Source of the DNA: Kiritimatiellia bacterium | Lineage (GTDB): Bacteria > Verrucomicrobiota > Kiritimatiellia > RFP12 > UBA1067 | Assembly (NCBI GenBank): GCA_017962315.1 | Contig: JAGCVN010000096.1 | Coordinates: 199 to 64,198 of the forward strand | Direction: 5' to 3' | DNA: 64,000 nt | Shown here: one piece after another, positions 2,026 through 34,099 of the stretch | Position numbering within the stretch: position 1 is the stretch's first letter | How the letters are laid out: every line of letters begins with the position of its first letter | Translations under genes and position numbers: made by a program | The notes under the pieces: model-generated | Told to the model about the DNA's origin: nothing | Database searches by the model: none | What the model saw: the letters and a program-made list of their open reading frames with translations, nothing else

Positions 2026-2070
2026 TGTTTTCTCCGGCATGGTGCCGGAGGACAAACAAGGAGTAAATCA

Positions 2071-2837: not shown

Positions 2838-2845
2838 TCACCCCC

Positions 2846-2879: not shown

Positions 2880-2895
2880 ATTACGGAGCAGAAAA

Positions 2896-6531: not shown

Positions 6532-6543
6532 TGTACGCAGACG

Positions 6544-10148: not shown

Positions 10149-10237
10149 TTATTGCGAAACACTATTCTCTCAAAATCACAACGAAGTCATTGTATAACGG
10201 CACTTTACATCTGTCAACAGTAAATCTTATGAAGTTG

Positions 10238-10422: not shown

Positions 10423-11043
10423 CTATCGCCAGCTGTCGAATTCGGTCTCTGTCTGTTCGTTGGAACGGAATTGAATGGCCCTCCAACCCAGGGACCGCGC
10501 CGCTTCGCAGTTTTCGGCGGCATCGTCCACGAAAAGGATGTCGCGGTCCTCGACGTGCAGCTTGTCGCGGATGAGCCGGAAAATACACGGCTGCGGCTTG
10601 AACATTTTGACTTCGCCGGAAACCACCATCGCGTCCGCACATTCGACAAACCCGGCGAAAATTCGCCGGAACAGTGACGCCATTTGCGTCGGCATATTCG
10701 TCAGGATGCCGATTTTGAATCCTTCCCCGCGGAGTTTGGCCATCCACGCCCGTGTCCGTTCGTTCGGGGTGCAGAAACTCTTCAGGTCGGCGTACGCGAG
10801 AGCTTGGAGGAGATCCGGCGCGACGTCGATACCGGCATCCGCCAGCAAGACGCCGTACAACTCGGCAGGCGTGATGAATCCGCCGTCCATCAGTTTCCGG
10901 TAGCGGGAGAACCCTTCGGTGAGGATGGATTCGGCGATGTTGTGTTCGCGGGCAAGGGCATACGCCTCATGCGGCCGGTCGGAGAGGGTCATCACGCCGC
11001 CGAAATCGAACACGACGGCTTTCGGAAGTGGAAGTGTATTCAT
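10423..11043 (-). CDS. HAD-superfamily hydrolase
   Basis: The start at 11043 gives MNTLPLPKAVVFDFGGVM (DxG motif I). ILFVDDAAENCEAARSLGW is motif IV. Confidence 0.75.
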   Translation of the reverse strand: MNTLPLPKAVVFDFGGVMTLSDRPHEAYALAREHNIAESILTEGFSRYRKLMDGGFITPAELYGVLLADAGIDVAPDLLQALAYADLKSFCTPNERTRAWMAKLRGEGFKIGILTNMPTQMASLFRRIFAGFVECADAMVVSGEVKMFKPQPCIFRLIRDKLHVEDRDILFVDDAAENCEAARSLGWRAIQFRSNEQTETEFDSWR

Positions 11044-11057
11044 AGTGGCCAAGTAGG

Positions 11058-11080
11058 GGAGGGGCAACGTCCCAGTTGCC
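11058..11080. repeat. isolated E-core hairpin copy
   Basis: GGAGGGGCAACGTCCCAGTTGCC differs by one base from 21887-21909. GGCAAC/GTTGCC forms a 6-bp stem. Confidence 0.5.
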
Positions 11081-11095
11081 CGAATCATCCGTCGA

Positions 11096-13727: not shown

Positions 13728-15019
13728 TTCGTCGTATTCCTTTCTTCAAGAGAGGGTGCCTCCGCATCCCCGTTCGGTTGTTCTTTCAGGATCGCCCTGA
13801 CGGCGGCCATCTCCTCCGGGGTGACGCCGCAGTCCAGCAGATAGAGGCGGATTCGCTCGGAGAGGGAATCGTCCTTCTTGCCGTATGCGGCGAAACCTGC
13901 ATCGAAGAACGCGCATGACCGCCAGTCGTCCGGCGTATCCACGCCGCGCACCCGTGGGTAACACGTCGATTCCCAATCTCGCTCCAGGTCTTCCCGCGTC
14001 ACGCCGAGGAATCCGTTGAGCAGGTAGGCGAGGCTTCCCGTCCGGTCCGCTCCGTGGGTGCAGTGGAAGTAAACCGGGTAATTCTTCCTGTCGGCGAAGA
14101 AGCGGAAGAGCCGTGCCGAAATCCGGCGGCCTTCCGGCGTAAACAGTTCCTTGTACGACTTGGCGTCGATGTTCACGAACGCGACCCTTGTTCCGAGCGG
14201 CGACCCGTCCATCCCGGCGATTTCGCGCGGGCAGCGCAGGTCGAGGTCGGTCTTGATTCCGAGGACTTCGGTCATGTACCGGACGTCTTCGACCGTCAGC
14301 CGGTTGCGCCCCCTGGTGACTCCGGCGAAACTACTTTCGTTCAAACCGTTTCCGCGATAGACAAGCCCCGTGCGGATGCGTCCTCCGTCTTCCGTCGCCC
14401 AGCCGCCGATGTCGCGGATGTTGTGGACGTTTCCCTCCAGGGCGATCCAGCGCGGCGGTTGCTTCGACGTGCGGAACGTGGAAACGGGCGAGACGTGTCC
14501 CGCTTTGCTTTTCCCGCAGGCGCAGGTTTCGGGGTAGGTAAACCCGCAGCGGAACTCGCCGCATTTGACATTGCTCCATACCTGCCAATGGTAGACGGCG
14601 CCGAGTTCGAGGTTGGCGCGCGGCACGGTGTATGTCCACACCTTTGAACCGTCCTGCTGTTCCTGGCCCTTCGCGTCGCGCTCCGTCAGCCACAGGTCGC
14701 CGCCGTTCGAGAAGTCGGCCTTGCGGGAGAGTCGCACGCGCCAGGGAGCGGATTCGCCCCCGGTGGTTTTCCATTTTAGGACGAGCGGCCGCTGCCGCCG
14801 CCATGCGTCGCGGGTCTGTTTGTCGTCCAGAAACTTCTTGGCGATTTCACACCGATTGGTGCGCGTTGTGCCGTCGAGGACGGCGAGCTGGGCGTCCGGC
14901 AGGGTCTCGAAGGTCGAACCGTCCTTCGGCGAGAGAAGCGAAACGGCTGCTTCCGCGCAAGGCAGGAAGGCCAGCGACAACGCGGAACCTATGATGAAGG
15001 ATAACTTTGCGGGTTTCAT
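13724..15019 (-). CDS. secreted tyrosine-phosphatase-family protein (CX5R)
   Basis: The start at 15019 has an AAGGAGGGGG RBS and gives MKPAKLSFIIGSALSLAFLPCAEA. The active site is HCTHGADRTG. Confidence 0.7.
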   Translation of the reverse strand: MKPAKLSFIIGSALSLAFLPCAEAAVSLLSPKDGSTFETLPDAQLAVLDGTTRTNRCEIAKKFLDDKQTRDAWRRQRPLVLKWKTTGGESAPWRVRLSRKADFSNGGDLWLTERDAKGQEQQDGSKVWTYTVPRANLELGAVYHWQVWSNVKCGEFRCGFTYPETCACGKSKAGHVSPVSTFRTSKQPPRWIALEGNVHNIRDIGGWATEDGGRIRTGLVYRGNGLNESSFAGVTRGRNRLTVEDVRYMTEVLGIKTDLDLRCPREIAGMDGSPLGTRVAFVNIDAKSYKELFTPEGRRISARLFRFFADRKNYPVYFHCTHGADRTGSLAYLLNGFLGVTREDLERDWESTCYPRVRGVDTPDDWRSCAFFDAGFAAYGKKDDSLSERIRLYLLDCGVTPEEMAAVRAILKEQPNGDAEAPSLEERNTTK

Positions 15020-16425
15020 TCCCCCTCCTTCGCATAAGCCAGCGACTTCCCGAATGTTCCGAGGGAAGAAGCCGGACGTACGGAGACCGTCCATTTTTCA
15101 CTTGGCGGCAAGTCCGTCTTCGGGATGGTGAACTCCGTCACGCCCCCGTTTTGTTCGCGTCCGGTTCCGAGGTTGCACCCTGCGGCGTAGATGAATTGAC
15201 GGAGACTGTTGCCCTCTGCCGCCACGGTCACTTCATAGGCGAACACCCGCGAATCCGGATTCCCGTCCGCCAACGGGATTTGGATACGGAGTGATTGCGG
15301 ATCCGGCGTCTCCACGCATAATTTCGCACCGGGGCGGAACTGCGGTTCGCCGATGACCTTTTTCAGTTCCAGAGGCGCGAACGGGTGCGGGGCGTATTGC
15401 CCAAGCGGCATCATCCAGTCCGCGCCAAGGCTTCCGCCCTGCCCGAACTCGCGCCGGTTGATGACCATCATTTCGTCGTATAGGCGGACGATGTACCCCT
15501 GCCTGTTTTTCCCGGCGGTATCCGCGCCTATGAAAGGAGCCGTTGCCCATCTGCACGAATTCGGCGACAAGCTGTTTGTTCCCATCGGTGCGCATGAAGG
15601 GCACTGTATCGACGGAGAAGAACCCCACGTATGGATGACGTTCCAGTTCGCCGCACTTGCATGCCAGTGCCCGAAGAAACTCACCGCGTTGGGATAGTCG
15701 CGCATCGCTTTGTTGAAGATCGCGTGAGACCGGATGTGCGAGAGGATGAAAAACGGATTCTTGTTTTTGGCGAGCGCGGATGCCGCGTCAATCGTCTTGA
15801 CCAGGGCCGTGACCTTCGCCTCGTCTTCCCTGAAGTTCTTCCCTGCGTAATGGCGACCGAAGAAATGATACCCCTTCAACACCCTGTGCCAGACAGGTTC
15901 GTACTTCTCGCCCCAGATGCGTTCCCAATGGCTCGCGATGTCGGTGCAAAGCAGATGCTGTCTCCGGATTTCGGGGTCGGGGTGGATCTTTTTCACCAGT
16001 TCTCCGATTCCGTAGGTGCTGCCGTCGATGTCGTGGTTGCCCGCGACGAACAGGCGTTCTACTTTTCGCCCGCCGGGGGCAAGGTCGCCCGGGAACACCT
16101 TGTCCCAGGCGGTTCGGTGGAATTCCATTTCTTCGACCTGCCCGGTGTGCGCCATGTCGCCGAGGTGGACGACGGCATCGACGTTCTGCTCGCGGAAATC
16201 CTTCAACGCCGCGACAAACCACCTGTCCGCCCAGTAGCCGGTGCTGTAGGTGCCTTTGACCGTCGTCCGCAGATGCGTGTCGCTGACGACGCCGAATACC
16301 AGGTTTGCCGTCTTCGTCGGCCGCCAGCCGGACGGAACTGCGAAAAGACGTCCGCCGAAAAGCGACCAAAACGCGGTCGCGCACTTCAGAAACCCGCGTC
16401 TGCTGATCCGTTCCTCCATACGCAT
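15016..16425 (-). CDS. Tat-signal metallophosphoesterase (calcineurin-like)
   Basis: The twin-arginine leader is RISRRGFLKCATAF. Motifs are GVVSDTHL, GDMAHTG, GNHD and GHWH. The stop overlaps the next start (ATGA). Confidence 0.75.
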   Translation of the reverse strand: MRMEERISRRGFLKCATAFWSLFGGRLFAVPSGWRPTKTANLVFGVVSDTHLRTTVKGTYSTGYWADRWFVAALKDFREQNVDAVVHLGDMAHTGQVEEMEFHRTAWDKVFPGDLAPGGRKVERLFVAGNHDIDGSTYGIGELVKKIHPDPEIRRQHLLCTDIASHWERIWGEKYEPVWHRVLKGYHFFGRHYAGKNFREDEAKVTALVKTIDAASALAKNKNPFFILSHIRSHAIFNKAMRDYPNAVSFFGHWHASAANWNVIHTWGSSPSIQCPSCAPMGTNSLSPNSCRWATAPFIGADTAGKNRQGYIVRLYDEMMVINRREFGQGGSLGADWMMPLGQYAPHPFAPLELKKVIGEPQFRPGAKLCVETPDPQSLRIQIPLADGNPDSRVFAYEVTVAAEGNSLRQFIYAAGCNLGTGREQNGGVTEFTIPKTDLPPSEKWTVSVRPASSLGTFGKSLAYAKEGE

Positions 16426-16611
16426 ATCCCCCCTCTGAAATGTTGAAGCCACGGCGCTCATTCTACACCAGAACGGAGTTCCGGTTCAATGGGAAAGTGA
16501 ATACGGCTCAAACCGGGAAGTGCGCCACGCGCATTTGATACTTGCAACCCGGGGCGGGGAGGTGTAGGCTTCTCGTATCCGGCGGAGTCGATGCCGGAGA
16601 AGGGAGTTTCT

Positions 16612-20441: not shown

Positions 20442-20609
20442 GACGGGGAGAAAAAACAAAAGAATCGATGATTGTTCACAAACCGCCGATGGCAAATGTC
20501 CCGCGTTTGTATCTGCGGTGTCCTTTGCCATGGGTAAATTTCCTTGGGAGGGGACGGTGGTTTGTGGTAGACTGTGGACATCACGTTCGATCTAGGAGAA
20601 ACACAACCG

Positions 20610-21539
20610 ATGAAATCTTTTTGCCCGGTTCTTTTGTCGGCGGTCTGCGCCATGTTCGCAGCCGTCTCCACCGCCGCCTCCGAAATCAAAGGCGAATTGC
20701 CCTCGCCGCTGCTTGTGGCCGCCACCGCGCGCGCCATGCTCGTGGGGACTGACGGGAAGATTCTCTGGGAACTGCGAAAGTGCGGCAACATTCACCGCGT
20801 CTGGCTCAAGGACGAGTGGGTGTATTTCTCGAACAATAACCTTTGGCGCGTCAACGTCCTCTCCGGCAAAAAGGAATTCCTCTACAGCCCCTGCCCGAAA
20901 GACGGACTTTTCGGGTTCGAGATCCTGCCGGACGGGAACATCGTGATTGCCGAAAACGGGACGGGGTACATCACGGAATTCGCAGCGGGCACGACGAACG
21001 CCGTTGTCCGGTTCAAGGGCGATCCCCGTACCGCCCAAGGAAAAATTCCGGGGCTTCATAACCGCTACCGTATGATCCGCAAAACCCCTGCGGGGACGTA
21101 CCTGGTCTGTTGTTCGGGCGCGAACGCGGTGCGCGAGTACGACGCAAAGGGAAAACTCCTGTGGGAACAGTACGCACCCCGCCTCAAGAGCGGACATTCC
21201 CCGTTGACCTTCGAGGCGTTGCGCCGGAAGAACGGCAACACGATCATTTCCCATCTTGGCGGTATCACCGAGTATACGCCTGACCACCGCGCGGTCTGGT
21301 CGTTCACCATCGGGGACTTCCCCGAATTGAAGCTCGACAACCTCTGCGGCATCCAGGAACTTCCGAACGGGAATCTGGTGGTTGGGACGTATGCGAACGG
21401 CCGTCCTGACGGTTCGCGGGTCACCGCGTTTGAGATCACCCGCGATAAGAAGATCGTCTGGAGTTACGCGCCGACGCACGACCGGAACATGATGACCGCG
21501 TTCAGGATCGAGGCCGCAGAGTGGCCCGCGAAAAAATGA
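20610..21539 (+). CDS. secreted protein, probable beta-propeller repeat fold
   Basis: The signal peptide is MKSFCPVLLSAVCAMFAAVSTAAS. Strand-rich segments of ~45 aa repeat. No catalytic motif was recognised. Confidence 0.4.
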   Translation: MKSFCPVLLSAVCAMFAAVSTAASEIKGELPSPLLVAATARAMLVGTDGKILWELRKCGNIHRVWLKDEWVYFSNNNLWRVNVLSGKKEFLYSPCPKDGLFGFEILPDGNIVIAENGTGYITEFAAGTTNAVVRFKGDPRTAQGKIPGLHNRYRMIRKTPAGTYLVCCSGANAVREYDAKGKLLWEQYAPRLKSGHSPLTFEALRRKNGNTIISHLGGITEYTPDHRAVWSFTIGDFPELKLDNLCGIQELPNGNLVVGTYANGRPDGSRVTAFEITRDKKIVWSYAPTHDRNMMTAFRIEAAEWPAKK

Positions 21540-22150
21540 GGTTCTCCAAGCATACGTGCGGGTGTTTTATGCCGACTTTCGGCATCTCGCCGGAACATGG
21601 ATTTTTCTTTGCCGCCTTCCCGTTTGATTGAAACGAAGCCCGCCGCCCGCGTTCCGCACGGGAATGTACATGAGGGTAAGTTTCTGAAAACAACATGAAC
21701 AACTTGAAAACAACGTTTGCTTCTTCCGCGCACAACCATGCGCGGTTATGAAAACGCCGCGTTGTTGCGCGGCGAGGGAAGGATGTTGTCTTTACAAGTT
21801 GTTTCGGTTGTCACCAATCGAACTTACAGGTAAGACGCGAAGACGCAAGGAACGCAAAGGACAGGCTGTCGCCGGCGCTGTTTCCGGGAGGGGCAACGTC
21901 CCTGTTGCCTTCGTTCCGGCGGGACGGTCGCTTTCTCTCTGTGTCTCTCGTCTATAACTTCACCCCACGGCTTACCGGGGACAGTATAGCAAGTTATCCG
22001 AATCGACTCACTCGCGCCGAGGCGCGAGGAGGGGCGTTCAAAAAACGCGAGAGGTCTCCCGCCCGTTGCATTCCCGGAGAAATCGTCGTTTCACACCTCG
22101 AAAATGCCCTTTGCCGGTTGAATCAGATTCACATTCATGCACAAAGTCCC
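21540..22150. repeat. mosaic intergenic repeat, locus 2 (modules A, B-rev, E, G, C, D) = left inverted arm
   Basis: It starts one base after the stop codon at 21537-21539. The module order matches the reverse complement of 25385-26156. Confidence 0.8.
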
Positions 22151-22219
22151 AAAAATGAACGCGACAGCATCCGATGGCCGAAAGAATTTCCATCAAACGA
22201 AAAAAGTCCCCAATTTTGT

Positions 22220-22248
22220 TTGACAGAATTCGTTAACTCTCTGAAAAT
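22220..22248 (+). promoter_or_regulatory. candidate sigma70-type promoter of the 998-aa gene
   Basis: TTGACA (22220-22225), a 17-nt spacer, then GAAAAT (22243-22248). It sits about 80 nt upstream of the start codon. Confidence 0.3.
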
Positions 22249-22326
22249 GGTCGTGTTTGTTTGACTGTCGGAAACGGACGCGCCGCGCCTAATGCAGGGG
22301 CGGCCGTCTAAGAAAGGATGAGCCGT

Positions 22327-25314
22327 ATGAGGAATCGTATTTTTGTAGGCGTCGCCAGTCTCCTGGTGGCATTTTCGTCGTTGGGCGCGAAGTACCCCGC
22401 CGTCAGTAATTCTGGCGCGGTGTACGTAAACCAGTGGACCAGCCAAGTCCCGAAGGCGGTGGCCGCCGCCCGGGAGAACAACGTCCCGATGCTGATCACC
22501 TTTGTAAACCACGGACCGAAAGGAAACTGCGGGCATTGCGCCACATGGGCGGAACGGTGCGTCTCCTCGTCGAGCCACTTTGCAAGCTTCATTGCCGACC
22601 ACCCCATGATCCTGGTCATGGTGAACAAGGCGGATGACGAAAAACTTTTCAACAAATACTACTGGCAATACCTGGGCAACAAAGCGAATAACAAGTACCC
22701 CGGCATGGCCATTTGGAGTGCCACGGGAAAGCTTCTCAGTTCATTGAACGCCCGAAGCGATTGGAGCAAGGTCTACCCGAACGAGGCGAAGTGGCAGGAA
22801 TGGCTCTCCAAATATGTTCCGGCGAAACCCCGGATTTCGACCGTCAACCTCTCCCAGGGGACGACGCTCACAGCGGGAGGAACCTACTCCGGCTCGATCT
22901 CGTATACGGAGGGCGCGGGAAACGTTGTTGTCCGCTTGAGTTCAAGTGATGCGCGGGGCACGTTCAGCCAGACCGAGTTTACGCTGGCAGCCGGCAACGG
23001 TGGCGGCAGTGCCTCCTTTACCTTTAGGCCTTCACTGATGCCGGACATCATCGCGAATGCGACAATCAGCCTCTCGAAGGTTTCCGGTGAGGCCAATCTG
23101 GGTACGCAGTCCATCAACCTCACCATTAAAAATGCGAATGTGAAGCAGACGCTCGCCGAGTACGCCGCGTCCAAGGGGATGCCCACGCTCCTCGCCCCCG
23201 CGAACGATTGGTATCTCGATCAGAACGACGTCCTGCGTAGCGGACCGATTGCGTCCGAAGCTTCCACCGAGCTGGCTTTTACGGCCACGGAATCCGGAGT
23301 GTTGACCATCGGCGACGTCGCTGTTGATGGAATCGGCATCCTTACCGTCCAGATCGATGGTACGGAATCGGCGATTGACGCCGCCAACGTCACGACGATC
23401 GGCCTGACGAAAGGTCAGAGAGTCGTTTTCACCGGTGCGGCCGTGCAACCGCCGGAACCGGATAACCCCGACAACCCGGACAACCCGGACAACCCGGACA
23501 ACCCGGACAACCCCGACAACCCGGACAACCCCGACAACCCGGACAACCCCGACAACCCGGACAACCCGGACAACCCGGACAACCCGGACAACCCGGACAA
23601 CCCCGACAACCCGGACAACCCCGACAACCCGGACAACCCGGACAACCCGGACAACCCGGACAACCCCGACAACCCGGACAACCCGGACAATCCCGACAAT
23701 CCCGACAACCCCGACAACCCCGACAACCCGAACAATCTGATTGTGATCTCCGTTCCCGTTAACGACGATGGTCCCGCAGAGACCGTGTTCAAATTCGGAA
23801 GTCTTTCGTTCGCCCCTTACAGACCTGTCACGCTTACGAAACCTGCCAATGGTGCCGTCATCCAGCTCCGCGACCTCCAGTCGAATCACTCACTGGTCGA
23901 TCTTGCCTGGAATCCGCTAGGCGGTGCTTCCTCCTACACCCTTAACATGGGGGCGGCGGCGAACGGTTTGAGAAACGTCTATGAGGGAGATTGTGTCCCG
24001 CTCAATGCAATCGACCTCGGCGTCGTTGTGACGGACACCGCACAAGGTACGGTCTACGCGGCTGTCGATGCCGTCATTCCCGCCGACACGTTCGACTATG
24101 CCGCCGGCGATGTGACCGTCTACGGGACTATCAACACCTTCAGCATCGTCGCGAAGCCGGTCTTTCCGGCGGATTCGGTGACGTATACCACCGCCTATCA
24201 GAAGCTTCCCGTCTCGATCACCTTTAGGGCGGAGAGCCTGACCCCCGTAAGCTATTCCGCCTCCGGCCTTCCTTCCGGTCTGAAAATGGATGCCGCGTCC
24301 GGCACGATTTCCGGTTCGACCATCCGCACGGGTACGTTTTCGGTCGCGATTAACGCAACCAATCCCAGCGGCACGACGACGCATTGGATGACGCTTGTGG
24401 TCAAAGCTGCCAAGAGTCTGAAGACGAAATGCACGGGGTTGGTCTACTACGGGGACGGACGGACGCTCGCCGGGACGATCGCCCTTAGCGTCTCCGCCAA
24501 CGGAAAAGCAACGGCGAAACTCCTCACCCCCGGAAGGACCAACGTCAAAGGCACGGTCTCGACCAGAGGAGATGCCCTTGTGTTCAACCAAGGCAATCTC
24601 GCCCTCATGCGTCGCGGCGACGGCGTTTGGATCGGAACGTACAAGGGCTACCGCGTTGTGGCCCGGGCGGCGGGTTCCGGAAATACGGGGACGTACACGG
24701 CCACGCTCGTCAACAACGGTATCGCCCGTGGATACGCGACGGTGACGGTCAAGGCCAAAGGCAAGGTTAAGGTGGTGTGCAAGCTGCCCGACACGAAGCA
24801 GGCCTCCATTTCCACGACGGGAATCAATCTGACCCCTGACCAGGCGGCGGCCGCAGGGATTTATTTCCCGGCGGGTGTCGGGGGGACTGCGCTGTACTTC
24901 CCCGTGTTCAAGAGTTCGAGCAGTGTGAAGTTGGCGGGTATCGGCGTTGTCTGCAGCGGCACGTTCTCCATTCCGTCCGCCTCTTGGAAGGGTGCGTACT
25001 CCGTGCCGCTCTCCGCTGCCGGGCGAAAATACACCGCCTCCCTCGGCGGATACGCGGGCAGAACCTTCCTCGTTACCGGGCGGTCGGGAAATATTGTCGC
25101 CTCCTTCACACTTAGCGCGTCCAAGTCGAACGTCTCGGCGGGGGCAAGCAAGACCGCTAAGTTCACGACCAAGAGCAAGACGGGGCTGTTCTCCGCCAGT
25201 GTACGCATCGGGAAGAAAAAGGTGAACCTGAAAGGTGCGCTGGTTCCCGCTGAGACGAGTGCCGGTGCCGTCGGGAAAATCGGCAAAACCTTCTACTACG
25301 GCGGGATTCAGTAA
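22327..25314 (+). CDS. secreted giant protein: thioredoxin-like CGHC domain + (DNP)n spacer + Ig-like domains
   Basis: ATG at 22327 has an AAAGGA RBS (alternative start 22318) and gives the signal peptide MRNRIFVGVASLLVAFSSLGA. VPMLITFVNHGPKGNCGHCATW is thioredoxin_7-like. A DNP tripeptide array follows. SGLPSGLKMDAASGTISG is a putative Ig-domain motif. Confidence 0.7.
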   Translation: MRNRIFVGVASLLVAFSSLGAKYPAVSNSGAVYVNQWTSQVPKAVAAARENNVPMLITFVNHGPKGNCGHCATWAERCVSSSSHFASFIADHPMILVMVNKADDEKLFNKYYWQYLGNKANNKYPGMAIWSATGKLLSSLNARSDWSKVYPNEAKWQEWLSKYVPAKPRISTVNLSQGTTLTAGGTYSGSISYTEGAGNVVVRLSSSDARGTFSQTEFTLAAGNGGGSASFTFRPSLMPDIIANATISLSKVSGEANLGTQSINLTIKNANVKQTLAEYAASKGMPTLLAPANDWYLDQNDVLRSGPIASEASTELAFTATESGVLTIGDVAVDGIGILTVQIDGTESAIDAANVTTIGLTKGQRVVFTGAAVQPPEPDNPDNPDNPDNPDNPDNPDNPDNPDNPDNPDNPDNPDNPDNPDNPDNPDNPDNPDNPDNPDNPDNPDNPDNPDNPDNPDNPDNPDNPDNPNNLIVISVPVNDDGPAETVFKFGSLSFAPYRPVTLTKPANGAVIQLRDLQSNHSLVDLAWNPLGGASSYTLNMGAAANGLRNVYEGDCVPLNAIDLGVVVTDTAQGTVYAAVDAVIPADTFDYAAGDVTVYGTINTFSIVAKPVFPADSVTYTTAYQKLPVSITFRAESLTPVSYSASGLPSGLKMDAASGTISGSTIRTGTFSVAINATNPSGTTTHWMTLVVKAAKSLKTKCTGLVYYGDGRTLAGTIALSVSANGKATAKLLTPGRTNVKGTVSTRGDALVFNQGNLALMRRGDGVWIGTYKGYRVVARAAGSGNTGTYTATLVNNGIARGYATVTVKAKGKVKVVCKLPDTKQASISTTGINLTPDQAAAAGIYFPAGVGGTALYFPVFKSSSSVKLAGIGVVCSGTFSIPSASWKGAYSVPLSAAGRKYTASLGGYAGRTFLVTGRSGNIVASFTLSASKSNVSAGASKTAKFTTKSKTGLFSASVRIGKKKVNLKGALVPAETSAGAVGKIGKTFYYGGIQ
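23461..23730 (+). repeat. 30 tandem copies of a 9-bp unit GACAACCC(G/C), in frame (Asp-Asn-Pro)n
   Basis: Counted unit by unit. Variation is confined to the third base of the Pro codon, plus GAT in unit 1 and AAT in units 26-27. Confidence 0.95.
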
Positions 25315-25343
25315 CCCGTCGCGAAACATCTGGTGTTCCCATT

Positions 25344-25384
25344 TCGATAGCTATCGATTTTACTCGGTAGCTATCGATTTTTTT
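25344..25384 (+). terminator. tandem AT-rich palindromes with T-runs downstream of the 998-aa gene
   Basis: TCGATAGCTATCGA (25344-25357) is followed by TTTT. TCGGTAGCTATCGA (25364-25377) is followed by TTTTTTT. It could alternatively be an operator. Confidence 0.35.
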
Positions 25385-26156
25385 GGACTTCGTGCATGTG
25401 TGTGAATCTGATTTAACCGGAAGAAGGCATTTTTGAGGCATGAAACGACGATTTCTCCGGGAAAGCGACGGGAGGGAGACCTCGCACGTTTTATGGACGC
25501 AGCCCCCGCTCGCGCCTCGGCACGAGTGATTCGATTCGGATAACTTGCTATACTGTGCCCGGTAAGTCGTGGGGTGAATTATAGACGAGAGACACAGAGA
25601 GAAAGCGAGCGCCCCGCCGGAACGCAGGCAACAGGGACGTTGCCCCTCCCACAACGGACGCCAAGCCACCTCTCCCTCCTGTGATTTTTACCGCGGAGAC
25701 GCAGAGGCGCAGAGAAGGGAAAGGGCGACAGGGACGTTGCCCCTACCGGAAACAGTGCCGGTGATACTGTCCCCCTTTGCGTTCCCTGCGCCTTCGCGTC
25801 TTACCTGTAAGTTCGATTGGTGACAACCGAAACAACTCGTAAAGACAACATCCTTCTTCCGCCACGCAAAGGCGCGGCGTTTTCATAACCGCGCATGGTT
25901 GTGCGCGGAAGAACCAAACGTTGTTTTTAAGTTGTCCATGTTGTTTTCAGAAACTTACCCTCGTGTACATTCCCGTGCGAAGCGCGGGCGGGGTGCTTGC
26001 CTATAAAATGCCTTTTATCCCCATGAATGCTCCCGCGCCGAAGCGCGGGCGGAGGACTGCGTTTCAATCAATCGGCAAGACGGTAAAGGAGAATCCATGT
26101 TCCGGCGAAATACCCGAAAGTCGGCACAAAACACCCGCACGTATGCCTGAAGAACC
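25385..26156. repeat. mosaic intergenic repeat, locus 3 (D-rev, C-rev, G, E, extra E, B, F, A-rev) = right inverted arm
   Basis: The reverse complement aligns module by module with 21540-22150. It ends 13 nt from the stop codon (26170-26172) of the minus-strand membrane protein gene. Confidence 0.8.
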
Positions 26157-26169
26157 GATTTTTATCGCT

Positions 26170-28275
26170 TCATTTCGTCGCCTTCTGGTAGAACCAGTAA
26201 CCGAATACGGCGCGGTCGCCGTAGATTTCCAGGCGCGGGTCGGAACGGCGGATCAACGCGCCGGGGATGGTGAACGCGACTTCCGAGAAGGTGTTGCTGC
26301 TACTTTCAATCGGGCAGGTGAAGACACCCACTTCGACATCATCGACTTTCACGCGCAACTTCAGCGGCGAATCGAACGTGACTTTCTGTTCGCGGATACC
26401 TGCTGTCCGCACCTCCGTCTTCACCCGCGATGCCGTACGCATCACGACTTCCGTGTCGCCCCCCGGAGTTGCATGGAAAGTCATCGCGTCCCAGCCGATA
26501 ACCGCACGTCCACCGTCGAGTATCCATTTGCCGTCGTGCACGCCTTCCATCATGAACGGCGGATAATACAATCGATAATGACGGCTTTCGGCTACGTAGC
26601 CGGCGCGTTTCTCATCTTCTGAATACCCCACGTCAATCGCGTCGACGAGAACAGGAGCGGACGCTTCGGATTGATTCTCGGCGATCAGTCCTTTCACTCG
26701 GTCGATTATCCGATCCAGGGGGCGTTTTTCTTTTTGTTCCCGCGAGAAGGGGAAAAGGGCTTTATCCAGCACGTTCCAGTCGGTTTCCTGGAAGGTTCCG
26801 CCGTTTTGGGCTATCAACAGTGTCTTGCCGCAGAGTGAACGCAACGGCACCCCGCAATAGTCAGGTGGCTCGCTTCCCGGAAAACACCAGACATCGAACC
26901 GGAGATCGGGTCGGTGTTTCAGTAGTTCCAGGCTCATCCAGTAATCAGGACGGAAGAAATCGGGCGAATAAATCCCTATGAGGTTAACCATCCGGTGTCC
27001 CTGCAAGGCATAGGAGAGTCCGCATCCTTTGATCGTTCCGATCTTCGCTTCCTTTGAAAGCAGAGCGTTCGCCTCTTTCGCGAACTCGTAGTCGTACCCG
27101 TTTTCCTGCGAGGTACCGTAGAAAATCGCAATCAAGACCACCGCAAAGAAAGCTTGAGGGGCGAGGAGGAGAGACGCGGGGAGCGGCTTGAACACGGCGA
27201 ACCGCCCGGAAACCCACACCGCGCCTTCCGCCATCAGGAAGAACCAGAGGGGGAACAACCAGGCGAGATACCGGTCGAAGTTCGTGTCCTGCCACATACT
27301 CGATGCGACAATGGCGACGGAAGCACCCGCGGCGGCGAACAGCCACAGAAGCGGCCAAGGCTTCCGCCAATCGCGGCGGAAGATGCCCGTCCAGGCAAAC
27401 ACCGCGCTAAAGACGGGAAGATAGAAGAAGTCGCGAGGCGCTTTCTCCGGAATACCGAAGAACAACGTTTTCACCATCTTCAAGCAATCCTGCGCCGTCA
27501 GGCTTAACGCCACCGGCAACGGGACTTCTTTGAAATAACCTTTGTAGGCGACCGACTGGAACGAGAAAATCCCCGTCAACGCCCAGTTCAGCGCGAAGAC
27601 ACCCGCGCAGGAAAACATACACACCGTTGCGCACGCCCATTCGCCTTTCGATGGATGGTCGCCCGTGAACCGGCGCACGACCAGTGCGCCGGCGAAGAGT
27701 CCCCCCAGCAGCATCCCTTCCGGACGCGCCCAAGGCGCGAGGGCGAGCAGGATGCCGAAAGTCGCGAGATGCCCGTGGAAGAGGGCTGCTGCGAGCGAGG
27801 CGGATAACCCCATGAACAACCCGGTATCGCTTTGCGAAAACGCGCAGATTGCACTTTGCCCGCATAACACGCCGAGCACGGCGGCGAGTTTCGCGACTGC
27901 CTTGTCTTCACGTCCGTCCAGTTTCCAGAAGACCGTCGTCCAAGCCAATAGAAAGAGAAGATAGAACCCGGCGTTGAGGACGAACCCGGCTGTCAGCAGG
28001 GCGTCGCCTTTCACCCCCAACAGGTACGGAACTGCCAGCAGAAACGGGTAGAGATGCGATGTACACCCCGTGCTGGGAAGGTCTCCGGGTGTAAAGACGA
28101 ACGGCTGCCCCTCGGCGATCATCCTTGCCGATTGACAGTAGAGCAGCGTATCCGGTTGCGGGATGGAAACGAAATTTCCCGGCGAAGCCATCACCCCGGT
28201 GAAATAATAGGCGGCGGTCTGCAAGAGACCGCCTGCCAAAACCAACAAAAGAAGTTGTCTGCGATTCAGTTTCAT
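26170..28275 (-). CDS. polytopic membrane protein, GT-C-like (ArnT/PMT-like) N-terminal domain plus soluble C-terminal domain
   Basis: About 12-13 hydrophobic segments fall in the first ~400 aa. The first-loop motif PQPDTLLYCQSARMIAEGQPF resembles the Dxx(x)Y loop of GT-C transferases. The gene starts 70 nt downstream of the giant C10 gene on the same strand. Confidence 0.45.
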   Translation of the reverse strand: MKLNRRQLLLLVLAGGLLQTAAYYFTGVMASPGNFVSIPQPDTLLYCQSARMIAEGQPFVFTPGDLPSTGCTSHLYPFLLAVPYLLGVKGDALLTAGFVLNAGFYLLFLLAWTTVFWKLDGREDKAVAKLAAVLGVLCGQSAICAFSQSDTGLFMGLSASLAAALFHGHLATFGILLALAPWARPEGMLLGGLFAGALVVRRFTGDHPSKGEWACATVCMFSCAGVFALNWALTGIFSFQSVAYKGYFKEVPLPVALSLTAQDCLKMVKTLFFGIPEKAPRDFFYLPVFSAVFAWTGIFRRDWRKPWPLLWLFAAAGASVAIVASSMWQDTNFDRYLAWLFPLWFFLMAEGAVWVSGRFAVFKPLPASLLLAPQAFFAVVLIAIFYGTSQENGYDYEFAKEANALLSKEAKIGTIKGCGLSYALQGHRMVNLIGIYSPDFFRPDYWMSLELLKHRPDLRFDVWCFPGSEPPDYCGVPLRSLCGKTLLIAQNGGTFQETDWNVLDKALFPFSREQKEKRPLDRIIDRVKGLIAENQSEASAPVLVDAIDVGYSEDEKRAGYVAESRHYRLYYPPFMMEGVHDGKWILDGGRAVIGWDAMTFHATPGGDTEVVMRTASRVKTEVRTAGIREQKVTFDSPLKLRVKVDDVEVGVFTCPIESSSNTFSEVAFTIPGALIRRSDPRLEIYGDRAVFGYWFYQKATK

Positions 28276-28345: not shown

Positions 28346-31300
28346 TTATTCCGATTCCGGTTTGGAGATTACGGCCTTGAAGAACGTGTTCGTGCCGTCC
28401 TGCACGAACGTGGTCCGCGCCGTATCATTGCCGTCTTTAAACGTGGCGTTGTTGAACACTGCCTCTCTGAGGAAGTTGGTGATTCCTTCCGGTGTCTTGC
28501 CGCCGTAGAGTTTGAGTACACCGTTGATCGGCTTGTTCTCGCCCGCGCTTTGCAGGGCACCCGCGCGTTCAAGGGTCACGTCAACGGTCACGTTTGTGGC
28601 ATCGGAGAAGATCCCCGTAACCTTGAACTGATAGCCGAAACCGTCCTGCATCAGGTCGAGGTTGAGGAGGTAGGCGTCGGAGAATTGCGTTGTCGTGAGG
28701 CCGGCGAGCCTGCCTTTAACCATTCCATAGCCGTAGGGGAATGCATTCAGCCACATCGCCTGTTTGGCAGTGAGCGGTTCGTTGTTGTCGTCGCTCCCTG
28801 GCACGATTTCATCTGTCTTGAATTCAACGACTTCAACCGCCTTATTCGTGTAGCTCCCGTAAATCGACTCGACGAATCCCTCGCCGATGTAGCCGACCGT
28901 CTGTACAACCTCGCCGTCGTAGGCGAACGGGAAGCTCGTCACCGTTTCGTTCACCGTTCTGTCGTGCAGCGGCACGTAGTTCGCGCCGTTCTTCACCGCG
29001 ACGGTGTATGTTTTACTCGCGAGATCGAGTTCAATTCTGATGGTGTAGTCATTGTTGATCGCCACCGAGAAACCATCCGCCGTCGCGTCGCACCAGATTG
29101 TTTTTTGATTATCCTTCGTGTAGACCTGGAAGCAGTTGTTCGTGCCGATGCGCACCGCCGCTTTCACGCCGTCAAAGTCTTGATGCTCCTCCGCCGCGCT
29201 GTTGAACGAGGCCGTCGTCTCGATCGTCACGTTCGTCCCAGAGGACGGATTGTCGGCGGTGAACTCGTTGCGCTCGTCAATCTTCACCTTGTGGTTGACG
29301 TACTCCACTGCATTGGACCAGAGTCCTGTCGCCTCCTTGTAGTCCTCGTTTTCGAAAATCCAGTGGTCGGCGCGGTTCTGCGGTGTATCCTCGTATGCGG
29401 CGGGGTTCGCGCCTGTCGTCGGCCCGAAGAACTGCTTCACGTAGTAGTCGTAGGTGAACACCTCGCTCGGGCGGTACCCGTCGGCGAACACCACGGCTTT
29501 CACCGTCGTGGGGCCGGCCCCCGTGACGTTGATCACCGTGCCGGGCGTGTAGATCGGGCTTTCCGCCGTCGGCTCGGTGCCGTTCGTCGTGTAGTGGATT
29601 TCCGCGCCGGGAACCGTGGTCGCGAGATCGACGAGCGTGTTGCGGTAGCCGGCATCCGAGGTGGCGGTGGGCGCCGCCGCACGGGCGGCCTGGGTGTAGG
29701 TCGCGGACACCGTGGCGCTGTCGACGCAGTTCGCCTTGAACGCCTTTGCCTTGATCGTCGTCGTCGCGTTCAGCGTGATTGCGCCCGTGTACTGCGTGCT
29801 GCTCGCCGTCGGCTCGCTTCCGTTCGTCGTGTAGCGGATCGTCGCGCCCGCCGTCGCGCAGGAGAGCGTGACGGACATCGTATCCGTGTAGAATGTCGTC
29901 GCCGCGGGCAAGAACGTGGGCGCCTCCACTGTCGGGATCAGCGTGAACGTGCCGGTATAGACGGCGCTTTCGAGATAGGCCGGGGCGACGGCGATTGCCT
30001 TGATGGTCGTGGTGGCGGTGATCGTGATCGGCGCGGAATAGACCGAGCTCGACGTCGTGGGCTCGCTGCCGTCCGTCGTGTAGTAGATCGTCACGCCCGC
30101 CGTCGTGCACGCAAGCGTCACGGCGTGGCTGGCCGTGGTGAACGTCGTCGCCGTGGGCGAGGTGGGCGTCGCGGCGCGGGTGGTCGCCACCGTGACGTTC
30201 TCGACCGTCAGGTTCGCCGCGTTGACCGTGCCGTTGTAGATCGCGAGCTTCGCGCCGGAGGCGGAACTTGTCACCTTGGCGTTCAGGCTGTCGCCGGCGA
30301 TGGCGTTCACCTTCAACTCGTGTCCGTTGAGGTCGATCGTCGCGCCGCTGTCTACCACCACGTCGCCGAGCGCGCGCCAGTCGCAGTCGGAGGAAAGCTT
30401 CACGGACTGCGTGCCAGAGCCGAACGTGAAGTGTTCCGGCGAGAACGCATATTCGCCCGCGCCGTTGATCTTGATCGTGAGGGGCGTGACGAAATGGTGA
30501 TTACTTTCGAGAATGCGTCCGCCATAGCCGCCACCGGTGTCGCCAACGATGAGACGGAACCTGTGCCAACCTTCCTTGACATCAATGTTGGCGTATGCCT
30601 GCTGGCATGACAACCCGAAAATTGCCCATTCGTCGTCAACCATGAACGCCATGTAGTCATCCACGAATCCATGCAGGCCCCAGTTGCCGGCCTGGGCACG
30701 AGAGACATAGAACCAGCCGTCGTAGCGGAACTGCTTGTTCAAAAGGCCGCTCGGATAGTTCATACCAGGGTTGGGGATGATGCCGTTGTGGAGGTTGTCC
30801 ACGCTGCCCTCGCCCTGAAGGGTGTAGTCGCCCATCGCCGCATCCTTGAACGCCCTGTTTCCGCTGTTGCCGGCCCCCTTCGAGCCCCAGTATGTCGTCG
30901 TGCCGTCATTGCCGAACTGCACCTTGCGCCAGTTGGGCGTGTAGCCGGAGGGAATGGTGAACGCCGTGTTGCCGCCGGGGATGATGACGGTCGTGTTCGC
31001 GTCGGGAACCGCGCCGGAAATGGTGTTGCCGTTCTGGTCGAGGCAGGTCCAGTTCGCGGAGTTTGCAAGCGCGGCGGCGGTCGGCGCGGTGGTTCCGCCC
31101 TTCCAGGTCGCCTTCATGATGCGGGTGATCTCCGGTGGCGGCATGATTTCGTCCGGGCCCGCGTTCGCGTTCGCGGAGAGCTGCACGTCGCTCAGGATGC
31201 CGTTCCAGATGCGCACTTCGTCGTATTCCGCGCAGGCGTCGCTGTCGGCGGTATAGAAGGAGTGCCCGAGGTAGAGGACGGGATTGGAGATCGACTGGAT

Positions 31301-33466
31301 TCCGTTCGGGATGGTCATCGTCCCCGACTTCTGCAGCACACCCGTCGCAGCGTCACGGCGCATCCACCTGACGAACGTCGTGCCGTCGCGCTGGCGCTCG
31401 AACGTGGCGGAGATGTGGAACTGCCGTCCAAGTTTGTACGGCGCCATCGAGGTATCGACTGCGACCTCCGTCGTGTTCTTGCATCCGGCGCGGTCGTTCG
31501 TGGCGTCAGTGCCCTGCGACCACGTGAGGCAGAAATAATGGGTGTTGTCCGCGCCGTAGTCGAAGACGCGCCCCCAGTTGCGCGCGGCGGTCTGCGTCGC
31601 CCAGATTTCGATCGTGGCGGCGTCGGTGTTCAGGAGGTTCGTGCCAAGGTTGAGCGAGCCCGCGCCGTAACCGCTTCCGGTCAGTTTCGCCTTGCCATCC
31701 GCGATCGTGACGTTGGAACCGATCTTCGTCGCGGTGGAACCGCCCTGCGAGTCGTTGAGATTGCCGTTGAAGCTCCAGCGGTGGGCGAGGGAGGTGGAGA
31801 CGGAGTACGCGCCGCCGGCCGCGACATCGAGGTCGAGCCCGTAGATGTTCTCGACGCTGCCGGAGTACGAGATGCCTCCCGCGCCAGCGGCGATGGACGT
31901 CAGGCAGGACTTCACGCGCTGGATCACCCGCGTGGAACTGCTGCCGCTCGTCGCGGTGATGGTGTACAGCCCGGCGGGGAGCATAAGCGCGTACTTGCCC
32001 GTGGATGAGGCGGACGTTGCGGTGTACGACCTACCCGTCTCGCGGCATTCCGCCGTGACCGTCGCTCCGCCCACGCGACTGCTGCCGTTCTTGACGACGC
32101 CGCTCACGATGGTCAGGTCTGGGTCGCCCTTCGACGGGGGATACACATTGTACATGATGTCCTGAATAGATGTAAATCCGCTATTCGCCTCGGAGAGGTT
32201 GGGCGGCGCGTACCAGCCGTCGCTGGATCCGGTCCAGCCGAAGTTGAAGTGGACGTAGAGGGTGCCGCTCGAGTCGTAGCCGTAGCCGTCGGCGACGATG
32301 GCATGGGCTGGGACGAGCGTCGGACAGGGAAGCCCCGCGTCAAGGCTTCCGAGCATGGCCGCGCGGCTCGCGTCGCTCCACCCGCTCGTTATTTTCGCGT
32401 TGGCGTATGTGAACTGATCGACGATGCGGTGTCCGAAAACGGCGCCCGGAGCACCACTCTGGCCGCTGTTGCCTTGGTTGTAGTTCATGAAGCACGTCAT
32501 GCCAACGTCGCGGGTGAGCTTCCCGAGAGCGGCCTTGTAGGTGCCGCTGTCGCTAGACGACGGGTTGAGTTTTATGTATGACCAGTTGTACGTACCTCCG
32601 AAAGCGGGGTTCCATGGCGTTCGCGTCGTGGCGGATGCGCTTTCATCATAGCCGTTGACGTCCCAACCCTTCTGTGTGCCGCTGTAGTTGCAGGAACCGT
32701 ACCAGTTGGCGGTCTTGGTGATGGAAGCGGTCGGGTATTGCCAGAACCTCATCGTCTGTCCGCCCATCGTGGCGACGCAGCCACAAACGGCACCGCCGGG
32801 CGTGTAGTAGTTTTCGCCATGGCCCGACTGTCCCCATTTCGACTGCACGAGCTGATCGCAGCGCAGGTCGGCGGTGGGCGTCGAGCCCTTCGTGCTGAGC
32901 CTCAGCCCCCCCTTGCCGCTCGCCGCCGTGCGCAGGCGCGACCACTTCGTGTTATTGGCTGAAGAACGTCGTTCGGCAATCTTCTCAGCCTCGTCGTCTT
33001 CTTGCTGTTGTACGCTTGCTGTCGCCGCAAGCCGCCGACCGCCGACAGTTTCGGCCGCATTGGTCGAACACAGTTCGGCCATCGTTGCTGCCACGTCGAT
33101 GTTGAGCATCGCCATCAGTGGATTCTCGGCGGCGTTGGTGTTCCACGAACCTTCTTTTGAGTAGGCGAGGATCGGCTCCATCGCCGTGTCGCCGGAGGTC
33201 ACGACGAAACCACCGCCCTTCAGGCTCACAACGTAATACGTGCTAGTGCCGCCCTGTCCGTGACATTCCAGCGCGTTTTCCGGCTCGGCGGAAAACTCGT
33301 TGCCCAACGCCTCCTTCAGTGCCGTCCATCCTTTTACGGCTTCGACTGCTTCTTCGCCTGTCACCGAGGCCGCTCCGGCAGACAAAGACATCCCGCCTAG
33401 GAACAACGCGAACACAACCATTTTAACTGCGTTCGAACGCGACGCAAACTCGTTTATTGATTTCAT
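28346..33466 (-). CDS. giant secreted C10 (streptopain/SpeB-like) cysteine peptidase with CarboxypepD_reg, LamG, PA14-like and 3-4 CHB_HEX_C-type domains
   Basis: A signal peptide and a Spi/C10 propeptide (YYVVSLKGGGFVVTSGDTAMEPILAYS) are present. The catalytic Cys is in GGAVCGCVATMGGQTMRFWQYP and the catalytic His in HAIVADGYGYDSSGTLYVHFNFGWTGSSDGWY. LAHRWSFNG...VRIWNG is LamG. IYYTTDGSEPT repeats occur several times. Confidence 0.85.
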   Translation of the reverse strand: MKSINEFASRSNAVKMVVFALFLGGMSLSAGAASVTGEEAVEAVKGWTALKEALGNEFSAEPENALECHGQGGTSTYYVVSLKGGGFVVTSGDTAMEPILAYSKEGSWNTNAAENPLMAMLNIDVAATMAELCSTNAAETVGGRRLAATASVQQQEDDEAEKIAERRSSANNTKWSRLRTAASGKGGLRLSTKGSTPTADLRCDQLVQSKWGQSGHGENYYTPGGAVCGCVATMGGQTMRFWQYPTASITKTANWYGSCNYSGTQKGWDVNGYDESASATTRTPWNPAFGGTYNWSYIKLNPSSSDSGTYKAALGKLTRDVGMTCFMNYNQGNSGQSGAPGAVFGHRIVDQFTYANAKITSGWSDASRAAMLGSLDAGLPCPTLVPAHAIVADGYGYDSSGTLYVHFNFGWTGSSDGWYAPPNLSEANSGFTSIQDIMYNVYPPSKGDPDLTIVSGVVKNGSSRVGGATVTAECRETGRSYTATSASSTGKYALMLPAGLYTITATSGSSSTRVIQRVKSCLTSIAAGAGGISYSGSVENIYGLDLDVAAGGAYSVSTSLAHRWSFNGNLNDSQGGSTATKIGSNVTIADGKAKLTGSGYGAGSLNLGTNLLNTDAATIEIWATQTAARNWGRVFDYGADNTHYFCLTWSQGTDATNDRAGCKNTTEVAVDTSMAPYKLGRQFHISATFERQRDGTTFVRWMRRDAATGVLQKSGTMTIPNGIQSISNPVLYLGHSFYTADSDACAEYDEVRIWNGILSDVQLSANANAGPDEIMPPPEITRIMKATWKGGTTAPTAAALANSANWTCLDQNGNTISGAVPDANTTVIIPGGNTAFTIPSGYTPNWRKVQFGNDGTTTYWGSKGAGNSGNRAFKDAAMGDYTLQGEGSVDNLHNGIIPNPGMNYPSGLLNKQFRYDGWFYVSRAQAGNWGLHGFVDDYMAFMVDDEWAIFGLSCQQAYANIDVKEGWHRFRLIVGDTGGGYGGRILESNHHFVTPLTIKINGAGEYAFSPEHFTFGSGTQSVKLSSDCDWRALGDVVVDSGATIDLNGHELKVNAIAGDSLNAKVTSSASGAKLAIYNGTVNAANLTVENVTVATTRAATPTSPTATTFTTASHAVTLACTTAGVTIYYTTDGSEPTTSSSVYSAPITITATTTIKAIAVAPAYLESAVYTGTFTLIPTVEAPTFLPAATTFYTDTMSVTLSCATAGATIRYTTNGSEPTASSTQYTGAITLNATTTIKAKAFKANCVDSATVSATYTQAARAAAPTATSDAGYRNTLVDLATTVPGAEIHYTTNGTEPTAESPIYTPGTVINVTGAGPTTVKAVVFADGYRPSEVFTYDYYVKQFFGPTTGANPAAYEDTPQNRADHWIFENEDYKEATGLWSNAVEYVNHKVKIDERNEFTADNPSSGTNVTIETTASFNSAAEEHQDFDGVKAAVRIGTNNCFQVYTKDNQKTIWCDATADGFSVAINNDYTIRIELDLASKTYTVAVKNGANYVPLHDRTVNETVTSFPFAYDGEVVQTVGYIGEGFVESIYGSYTNKAVEVVEFKTDEIVPGSDDNNEPLTAKQAMWLNAFPYGYGMVKGRLAGLTTTQFSDAYLLNLDLMQDGFGYQFKVTGIFSDATNVTVDVTLERAGALQSAGENKPINGVLKLYGGKTPEGITNFLREAVFNNATFKDGNDTARTTFVQDGTNTFFKAVISKPESE

Positions 33467-33560: not shown

Positions 33561-34099
33561 GGGGGCTTCAGGCATACGTGCGGGTGTTTTGTGTCGACTT
33601 TCGGGTATTTCGCCGAAACATGGATTCCCCTTTACCGTCTTTCCGTTTGATTGAAACGCAGAGATGCGGAGGCGCAAAGGGGGACGGCTGCCGTCGGCGA
33701 TGTTTCCGGGAGGGACAACGTCCCCATTGCCTTCGCTCCGACGGGACGGTCATTTTCTCTCTGCGCCTTGCCTGAAAGTTCGATTGGCGACAACCGAAAC
33801 AACTTGTAAAGACAACATCCTTCTTTCGCCGCGCAACGGCGCGGCGTTTTCATAACCGCACACGGCTGTGCACGGAAGAAGCAAACGTTGTTTTGAGTTG
33901 TTCATGTTGTTTCCAGAAACTTACCCTCATGTACATTCCCGTGCGAAGCGCGGGCGGCCCGCTGGCGCGAGCGGGGGGGGCTGCGTTCAGAAAACGCGCG
34001 AGGTTTCCCTTCCGTTGCTTTCCTGGAGAAACCGTCGTTGCACGCCTCGAAAATGCCCTTTGCCGATTGAATCAGATTCACATTCATGCACGAAGTCCC
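33561..34099. repeat. mosaic intergenic repeat, locus 4 (A, E, G, B, D, all forward)
   Basis: It lies in the divergent region between the giant C10 gene and tpiA. Modules align with loci 1, 2, 3 and 5. Confidence 0.8.

Follow-up and report, generated by a model that had tools for sequence, protein, structure and literature searches.

Bacterial interspersed mosaic elements (BIME) of Escherichia coli, which are clusters of repetitive extragenic palindromic (REP) sequences, and the BOX elements of pneumococci are mosaic intergenic repeats. Invertible switches (fim, hin, shufflons, invertible promoters) use inverted repeats of only tens of base pairs to bracket a segment, lie next to a dedicated recombinase gene and change the connectivity of the DNA. 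[quoted passage not shown] Pairs of MITEs that flank class 1 integrons in Acinetobacter are described as mobilising the whole unit (Gillings 2009; Domingues 2011, as cited in PMC10969869). Published members of the ISL3 family of insertion sequences, such as ISArsp7 and ISPst2, have 24-bp terminal repeats (e.g., GGCTCTTCGCGGTTGGTGGTGAAT) that begin with GG and end with (G)TGAAT or TTGAT, and generate duplications of 8 bp that are often A/T-rich, e.g., TTTTTAAA and CAAAAAAG (PMC6305408, Table 3). Here, we analyse a 64-kb stretch of DNA (the window) from an uncultured Kiritimatiellia bacterium (contig JAGCVN010000096.1), in which a gene for a surface-type protein is enclosed by two inverted arms to form a 4.6-kb structure. 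With a probability of about 0.75, the arms represent two independent insertions of a composite, MITE-like, non-autonomous element of 0.6-0.8 kb beside a resident gene, and the 4.6 kb that they span neither function nor move as one unit.

Self-comparison of the window identified 21540-22150 (left arm, 611 nt) and 25385-26156 (right arm, 772 nt) as collinear inverted repeats, and a repeat search resolved seven collinear inverted blocks between 21528-22155 and 25379-26168 (55-225 nt each, 83-96% complementary). The global MAFFT alignment of the left arm with the reverse complement of the right arm contains 545 matches, 64 mismatches, and 165 gap columns, i.e., 89.5% identity over 609 aligned nt when identity is counted over aligned pairs. 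The longest perfect runs shared by the arms measure 46, 41, and 30 nt. The left arm, a non-coding copy of the composite on the plus strand, consists of module A (21540-21638), a GC-rich hairpin head followed by the long-hairpin unit B (21639-21848), module E/G (21849-21944), module C (21945-22035), and module D (22036-22150). The right arm is a second copy in the opposite orientation (minus strand) and reads, with increasing coordinates, D (25385-25498), C (25499-25591), G/E2 (25595-25650), an extra 97 nt (25651-25747), E1 (ending at 25801), B (25796-25998), F (25999-26059), and A (26060-26156). Two large indels separate the arms, both of them extra sequence in the right arm, namely the 61 nt of F and the 97-nt segment. 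The outer termini of the arms agree at 37/40 positions; the left arm starts 0 nt past the TGA of the open reading frame (ORF) at 20574-21539, and 13 nt separate the end of the right arm from the stop codon of the minus-strand ORF at 26170-28275. A first-pass annotation of the window had described the inverted arms at these positions, their near-identical outer termini and their distances to the host stop codons, all of which hold, and its lists of module order, with F and an extra segment plus a second E in one arm, correspond to the two indels. Coding capacity in the arms is limited to short ORFs, none of them conserved between copies.

Each arm is flanked by a short direct repeat of its own. 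The 8-mer AAAAATGA occurs as an exact plus-strand match at 21532-21539, where it contains the TGA stop of the upstream gene, and at 22151-22158, i.e., exactly at the boundaries of left-arm homology. Around the right arm, the direct-repeat test recovered CGATTTTT at 25375-25382 (inner copy) and 26156-26163 (outer copy, both on the plus strand), a repeat of 7-8 bp with a boundary ambiguity of 1-2 nt. Only 0.17% of 20,000 random position pairs, evaluated with +/-3 nt slack, carried a repeat of at least 8 bp (P about 0.0017 per arm). For the 4.6-kb unit as a whole, no direct repeat of at least 4 bp was present at 21540/26156 with +/-6 nt slack. The target-site duplication that a single cassette should have left at 21539/21540 and 26156/26157 is thus missing, and there is one duplication per arm instead. 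In silico removal of the left arm together with one repeat copy leaves the stop codon of the upstream gene intact, and removal of the right arm leaves convergent genes about 74 nt apart with one common hairpin terminator, which puts both putative insertion sites within A/T runs that adjoin a stop codon or a terminator.

The same two ends, the start of A and the end of D, delimit three copies in the window, i.e., both arms and a copy at 33562-34099. Anchored at position 1, the A-start and the reverse complement of the D-end match at 12-15/24 positions (consensus GGnnCTTCnnGCAT...TG.G..T), with GGTTCTTCAGGCATACGTG and GGGACTTCGTGCATGAATGTGAAT, the latter being the reverse complement of the D-end, as the candidate terminal repeats of the element. 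Compared with random 24-mers from the window, this match has P = 0.059 for the left arm, 0.0046 for the right arm, and 0.0014 for the 33.5-kb copy. The D-end also carries a -35-like TTCACA, which together with the A-run of the duplicated target (AAAAAT; spacing 17-18 nt) forms a predicted outward-facing promoter-like site; one such site at 22128-22156 (+) is in sense to the enclosed gene and one at 25406-25377 (-) runs antisense into its 3' end.

Between the arms there is only one long ORF (22318-25314, plus strand), encoding a protein of 998 aa with a signal-peptide-like N-terminus, a CGHC motif, a (DNP)n linker, and an Ig-like domain of the Pfam family He_PIG. A promoter scan predicted a sigma-70-like promoter, TTGACA-17-GAAAAT, at 22220-22248 within a native upstream region (22199-22317, plus strand) that lies outside the arm, and a terminator scan placed a native hairpin with T-run at 25344-25377 (plus strand), likewise outside the arm. 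The earlier statement that the arms enclose exactly one gene with its own candidate promoter and terminator is thereby borne out. Before the right arm inserted, the terminator was probably common to both convergent genes. The gene's own promoter and terminator are intact between the arms and the coding sequence, and the effect of the arms on the enclosed gene is probably minor. The host genes on either side are a beta-propeller gene (Mala_s_1-like by Pfam; 20574-21539, plus strand), whose true start is probably the ATG at 20610, and a gene for a 701-aa protein without Pfam domain (26170-28275, minus strand).

The orthologous locus of a sister species carries the same genes without the arms. 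Homologues of the 701-aa protein with 77% and 79% identity were found in two related uncultured Kiritimatiellia. The locus of the 77% relative, the sister species, was seen in two independent assemblies, an ENA contig (L005) and a contig (L011) of the GenBank metagenome-assembled genome (MAG) RGIG8368 from water-buffalo rumen. It comprises a 687-aa gene, a convergent 962-aa gene and a 310-aa gene in the order and orientation of the window. The 962-aa gene is the orthologue of the enclosed gene (77-78% aa identity over the N-terminal 400 residues) and the 310-aa gene that of the beta-propeller gene (94% aa identity), in both assemblies. The intergenic gaps, in the same gene order, are 200 and 124 bp, and BLASTN detected no repeat module anywhere on either contig. 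Only two segments of the window are conserved in these gaps, the promoter/5' region at 22199-22317 (77% nt identity to L005 15163-15279 and L011 2107-2223) and the native terminator at 25342-25384 (81% identical to L005 12204-12246). Since the gene occupies the same site, armless and with native promoter and terminator, in both assemblies, this comparison identifies it, control elements included, as a resident of the site in a species that lacks the arms, and not as cargo. Its GC content of 56-62% resembles that of its neighbours, and a foreign island was ruled out on this basis.

In the 79% relative, the 717-aa homologue of the 701-aa gene is followed by a nitroreductase gene (L001, L002). 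The enclosed protein has a single further true homologue, P0123 (955 aa), which is encoded in a second relative from the same sample (L014 5014-7881) between a Y-phosphatase gene and an HI0933-like gene. Repeat modules are absent from that locus and the upstream segment is kept, with the first 60 nt of 22199-22317 being 80% identical to L014 4966-5025. As judged from these alignments, gene order in the region is rearranged between species independently of the repeats. Homologues of the Y-phosphatase and of a metallophosphatase are present in the window at 13724-16461, 6-8 kb away. The (DNP)n linker of the enclosed protein derives from a 9-nt tandem array of ~45 units at about 23386-23790; the sister-species orthologue (L005 12265-15153) has far fewer of these units, and the linker, which thus differs in length between species, may be unstable.

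The arms belong to a repeat family. Their modules recur at other loci, as the first-pass annotation had also noted; we find three more intergenic loci in the window, and the five loci together cover 2.46 kb or 3.8% of it. The locus at 10237-10408 (minus strand) is a truncated copy right after the terminator T-run of a HAD-hydrolase gene, in which A is joined directly to E. The copy at 33562-34099 (plus strand) has both the A-start and the D-end and contains A, E, an inverted B, the tail of C, and D, and the mosaic at 51654-52019 lacks A and D and consists of the GC-hairpin head, B(-), F(-), and C(+). In the per-module identity matrices the arms are never nearest neighbours of each other. Module A is 87.6% identical between the arms and 92.8% between the right arm and the 33.5-kb copy; the core of B is 93.1% identical between the arms, while a copy on the unlinked contig L009 reaches 94.4% to the left and 95.0% to the right arm. 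The corresponding values, arm versus arm and left arm versus another locus, are 84.4% and 87.5% for the 5' part of E (10.2-kb copy), 92.3% and 93.4% for C (51.6-kb copy), and 85.1% and 89.6% for D (33.5-kb copy). At the level of these identities, the pattern is the star-like one of a repeat family and not that of a pair of sister arms. The 26-nt GC-rich hairpin unit (CCGCCCGCGCnnCGCnCGGGAATGTA) occurs four times in the window. An isolated copy of the 20-nt hairpin motif GGGGCAACGTCCCTGTTGCC of module E/G lies, with 1 mismatch, at 11061-11080, where the minus-strand HAD-hydrolase ORF (10423-11088) has its 5' end, apart from all other modules. Two large secreted C10-peptidase paralogues (28346-33466, minus strand, and 48809-51493, plus strand; Inhibitor_I69, Peptidase_C10, and CHB_HEX_C_1 repeats) share coding repeats and adjoin the repeat loci at 33.5 and 51.6 kb.

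Beyond the window, a bait search with pseudo-ORFs translated from the repeats returned two extra loci only, on unlinked contigs. L009 carries a solitary B of ~192 nt within a called AAA-ATPase-like ORF. L010, from a metagenome of the same project, carries a mosaic (2761-3720) of a divergent A right after the terminator of an OmpA gene, a partial B, and B-like units. These units share their ends (…GATGAGGGTAAnTT … AAnTTACAGGCAAG) and the GC-hairpin head with B and have different cores with unrelated internal hairpins, which suggests that the B-like units form a superfamily with conserved termini and interchangeable cores. Two further assemblies from this species have contigs (L007, L008; 99.96% identity to the window) that include no more than the outer 199-233 nt of the right arm, a portion 100% identical in both; a break at this point is what short-read assembly would be expected to give at a high-copy repeat. 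Exact-protein look-ups with the window proteins returned no same-species contig across the left arm and no empty-site allele. None of the modules matched Rfam at gathering thresholds, and the sole hit of a permissive scan (E = 0.18, a plant miRNA hairpin) reflects the palindromic E unit. Exact and degenerate patterns of module B had no match in GTDB species genomes or JGI metagenomes, A-terminus patterns had none in viral contigs or JGI metagenomes, and BLASTN of the right arm against plasmid and phage records gave none either.

Presence of 8-bp A/T-rich duplications, lack of coding capacity, multiple intergenic copies, and empty orthologous sites together fit a large MITE-like element, as would the short imperfect terminal inverted repeats (GGnnCTTCnnGCAT...GTGAAT). 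We propose that, in this species alone, one composite copy landed in each of the two intergenic regions beside the clade-specific gene. That each copy was inserted on its own, into an A/T run adjoining a stop codon or a terminator and with duplication of 8 bp of target, is shown here. The opposite orientation of the two copies, and hence the appearance of inverted arms, would be due to chance. A DDE transposase encoded at another site of the genome, most plausibly one of the ISL3 family, would act in trans to mobilise the element. The interior of the element is a mosaic of smaller hairpin-forming units (B, F, E, C). At least B disperses on its own, and the common progenitor of the two arms already had it nested within the A-E junction; such nesting would explain the module shuffling seen at the other loci. 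The first-pass annotation had called the lack of a recombinase or transposase gene unusual. The lack itself stands, as no Pfam domain of either kind was found in the about 50 ORFs of the window, and it ceases to be unusual once the arms are taken as two non-autonomous elements mobilised in trans.

Similarity to described MITEs includes the non-coding, multi-copy, hairpin-forming nature of the element and its intergenic position beside terminators, as well as putative short terminal inverted repeats, duplications at some copies, and empty sites in relatives (features per PMC10969869). It differs from them by its length of 0.54-0.77 kb, its weak terminal repeats, an interior that is a mosaic of units also found separately, and the lack of sequence similarity to any record searched. 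The 8-bp A/T-rich duplications and the D-end terminus resemble ISL3 elements, with GGGACTTCGTGCATGAATGTGAAT matching the ISArsp7 terminal repeat GGCTCTTCGCGGTTGGTGGTGAAT at 15/24 positions and the A-end matching at 12/24. The element, in contrast, carries no transposase gene, its similarity to ISL3 is confined to the termini and the A-end is the weaker of the two. The termini are suggestive of ISL3, and this assignment is a lead and not a proof of membership. Like BIME and BOX elements, the repeats consist of short hairpin modules that vary in order, number, and orientation between genes, but the sequences are others, the modules are larger (60-200 nt), the GTAG head typical of REPs is missing, and insertion of a whole composite with an 8-bp duplication is not shown by REP/BIME systems.

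Several observations weigh against two insertions of a MITE-like composite. The third copy with both termini is flanked by GAAT only and lacks a clear duplication. Both duplications at the arms are A/T runs, which are common near gene ends, and the null model of random position pairs may thus understate chance. The two ends match only weakly as terminal inverted repeats (12-15/24), a match that for the left arm by itself falls short of significance, and the size of 0.6-0.8 kb exceeds that of a typical prokaryotic MITE (PMC10969869). No autonomous partner or transposase was found in the ORFs of the window, and the pattern scans of other collections revealed no autonomous partner either. Finally, the short-read assemblies of the sister species establish that an armless allele exists there, which is not the same as the ancestral state.

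Accretion in situ is a minor alternative, in which the arms were built on site by many insertions of small modules and their order arose from an insertion-site preference for module ends. Some behaviour of the modules is what such a process would produce. B disperses alone in L009, module orders and orientations differ at 33.5 and 51.6 kb, and B-type units abut head-to-tail as ...GGCAAG|CCCGCC... in the right arm, at the 51.6-kb locus, and in L010. The 9-mer AACGCAGAG, expected 0.6 times per 64 kb, forms the left flank of the solitary B in L009 and equals the uninterrupted A-E junction at 33655-33663. Yet the two arms agree in the order and orientation of five to six modules, the 8-bp duplications coincide exactly with the ends of each whole arm, and a third locus has the same two termini. 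Moreover, nothing separates A from E in the 10.2-kb and 33.5-kb copies, but in both arms the GC-hairpin head and B interrupt them at the same nucleotide. It follows from this shared position that the progenitor of both arms already carried B, which in turn favours transposition of a composite over module-by-module accretion, and we regard accretion as improbable. Of the three readings offered in the first-pass annotation, coincidental accretion of small repeats nevertheless came closest; what does not fit is that either arm has the look of a single composite, inserted whole and with a separate 8-bp duplication, instead of many small repeats accumulated on site.

It is tempting to extend the composite reading to a two-tier system, which we put forward as a speculation with a low chance of being correct. 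In such a system, a DDE-type, ISL3-like MITE would serve as landing pad and vehicle for site-specific hairpin units of the B and F types, and the inverted pair around the surface-protein gene might occasionally act as a composite or invertible unit. The common ends, interchangeable cores, and strand-asymmetric pairing of the B and F units would be expected of single-strand transposition of the HUH/Y1 type or of a functional RNA. On either strand, module B is predicted to form a long hairpin whose tip is a three-way junction (z = -3.4 and -4.2). Five copies were compared (21672-21840, 25794-25962, 33761-33928, 51681-51849, and L009 2330-2497). One-sided changes in the stems, read on the strand GAGGGTAAGTTTCTG, gave 11 G.U cells versus 3 C.A cells in this small sample of non-independent cells, and double compensatory changes were absent from all five copies. 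This asymmetry hints at constraint on one single strand, be it RNA or single-stranded DNA. The AACGCAGAG flank and the abutment of B-type units resemble the site-specific, duplication-free insertion of REP doublets forming hairpins (REPIN) or of IS200/IS605-type hairpin elements, a likeness that two independent sites are too few to establish. The boundaries of the solitary B in L009 rest on nucleotide homology; at the protein level, the L014 paralogue was too distant to define them and in silico excision left the Pfam matches unchanged. Neither a Y1 (HUH) transposase nor a REP-associated tyrosine transposase (RAYT) gene was detected by Pfam among the window ORFs.

The structure of B could also be taken to mean that the modules are functional structured RNAs, such as 3'-untranslated region or small RNA elements, and that the arms are regulatory appendages of the flanking genes. 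Besides the predicted three-way-junction hairpin and the G.U pairs kept on one strand, the position of module A, which in 4/5 copies is preceded by a stop codon or terminator of the same orientation, would suit such a role, but this bias is not significant and was dropped as a meaningful signal. With neither compensatory changes nor an Rfam match even at the permissive threshold, with modules absent from relatives that have the same flanking genes, and with flanking duplications pointing to transposition, a role as regulatory RNA is very unlikely.

The first-pass annotation had also considered that the segment 22151-25384 is invertible by homologous or site-specific recombination, which would modulate the surface protein if it took place between the arms; we find this reading unsupported and just as doubtful as the RNA role. 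Its appeal lies in the enclosed product, a surface-type protein being a common target of variation, and in long inverted repeats whose perfect runs would in principle be enough for RecA-dependent exchange. Such inversion between arms of 89.5% identity is physically possible and should be rare. The locus shares with invertible switches that inverted repeats bracket a surface-protein segment, but lacks their short repeats, adjacent dedicated recombinase, and changed connectivity. Any inversion would turn the promoter and terminator, both of them within the segment, together with the gene and so leave expression unswitched, without on/off logic. In addition, the arms have diverged by 10.5% with no sign of homogenisation, no recombinase domain was found in the about 50 ORFs of the window, and the orientation is that of the armless sister species.

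Least probable of all is the remaining reading of that annotation, a composite or foldback cassette whose two inverted elements carried the gene, as their cargo, to its place between the beta-propeller gene and the gene for the 701-aa protein. In its favour, the outer termini are near-perfect inverted copies of one end (37/40) and match better than the A-start and D-end within one element, one relative (L014) has the gene at another locus, and MITE pairs are known to mobilise class 1 integrons (PMC10969869). Against it, the outer boundaries bear no duplication, the gene is present without arms at the same position in the sister species and without modules at its L014 locus, its composition is not anomalous, and the arms are no closer to each other than to copies at other loci. 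The armless site in a relative and the similarity of the arms to other loci are two outcomes that the first-pass annotation had itself named as refuting. As in the Acinetobacter pairs, two non-autonomous copies bracket a gene segment with no transposase nearby, but there the cargo is foreign and the whole unit is described as mobilised, whereas the gene enclosed here occupies its site in the sister species without arms, and a separate duplication flanks each of the two elements.

Two independent insertions of a composite element would mean that the architecture of a gene within inverted repeats should not, at this locus, be read as a phase-variation switch or a mobile cassette. The repeats themselves constitute a previously unrecorded, lineage-restricted, mosaic MITE-like family in an uncultured, rumen-associated lineage of Kiritimatiellia. 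Such repeats are potential substrates for genome rearrangement, and because they interrupt short-read assemblies they bear on the quality of MAGs from this group. If true, nesting of small units would modestly extend the known range of bacterial non-autonomous elements, and a two-tier repeat system would be one not described before for Kiritimatiellia.

Elsewhere in the window, a 75-nt repeat pair (84-158 and 7700-7774) was considered as prophage attachment sites and ruled out, as it corresponds to the FDPFAGSGS motif of two DNA-methylase paralogues. The region 752-8773 harbours phage- or mobile-type genes, including DUF5131 (752-1477), Phage_gp49_66 (2071-2550), a C5 cytosine methylase (4867-6531), and an N6/N4 methylase (7079-7876), and this cluster may be a prophage remnant or a restriction-modification island.

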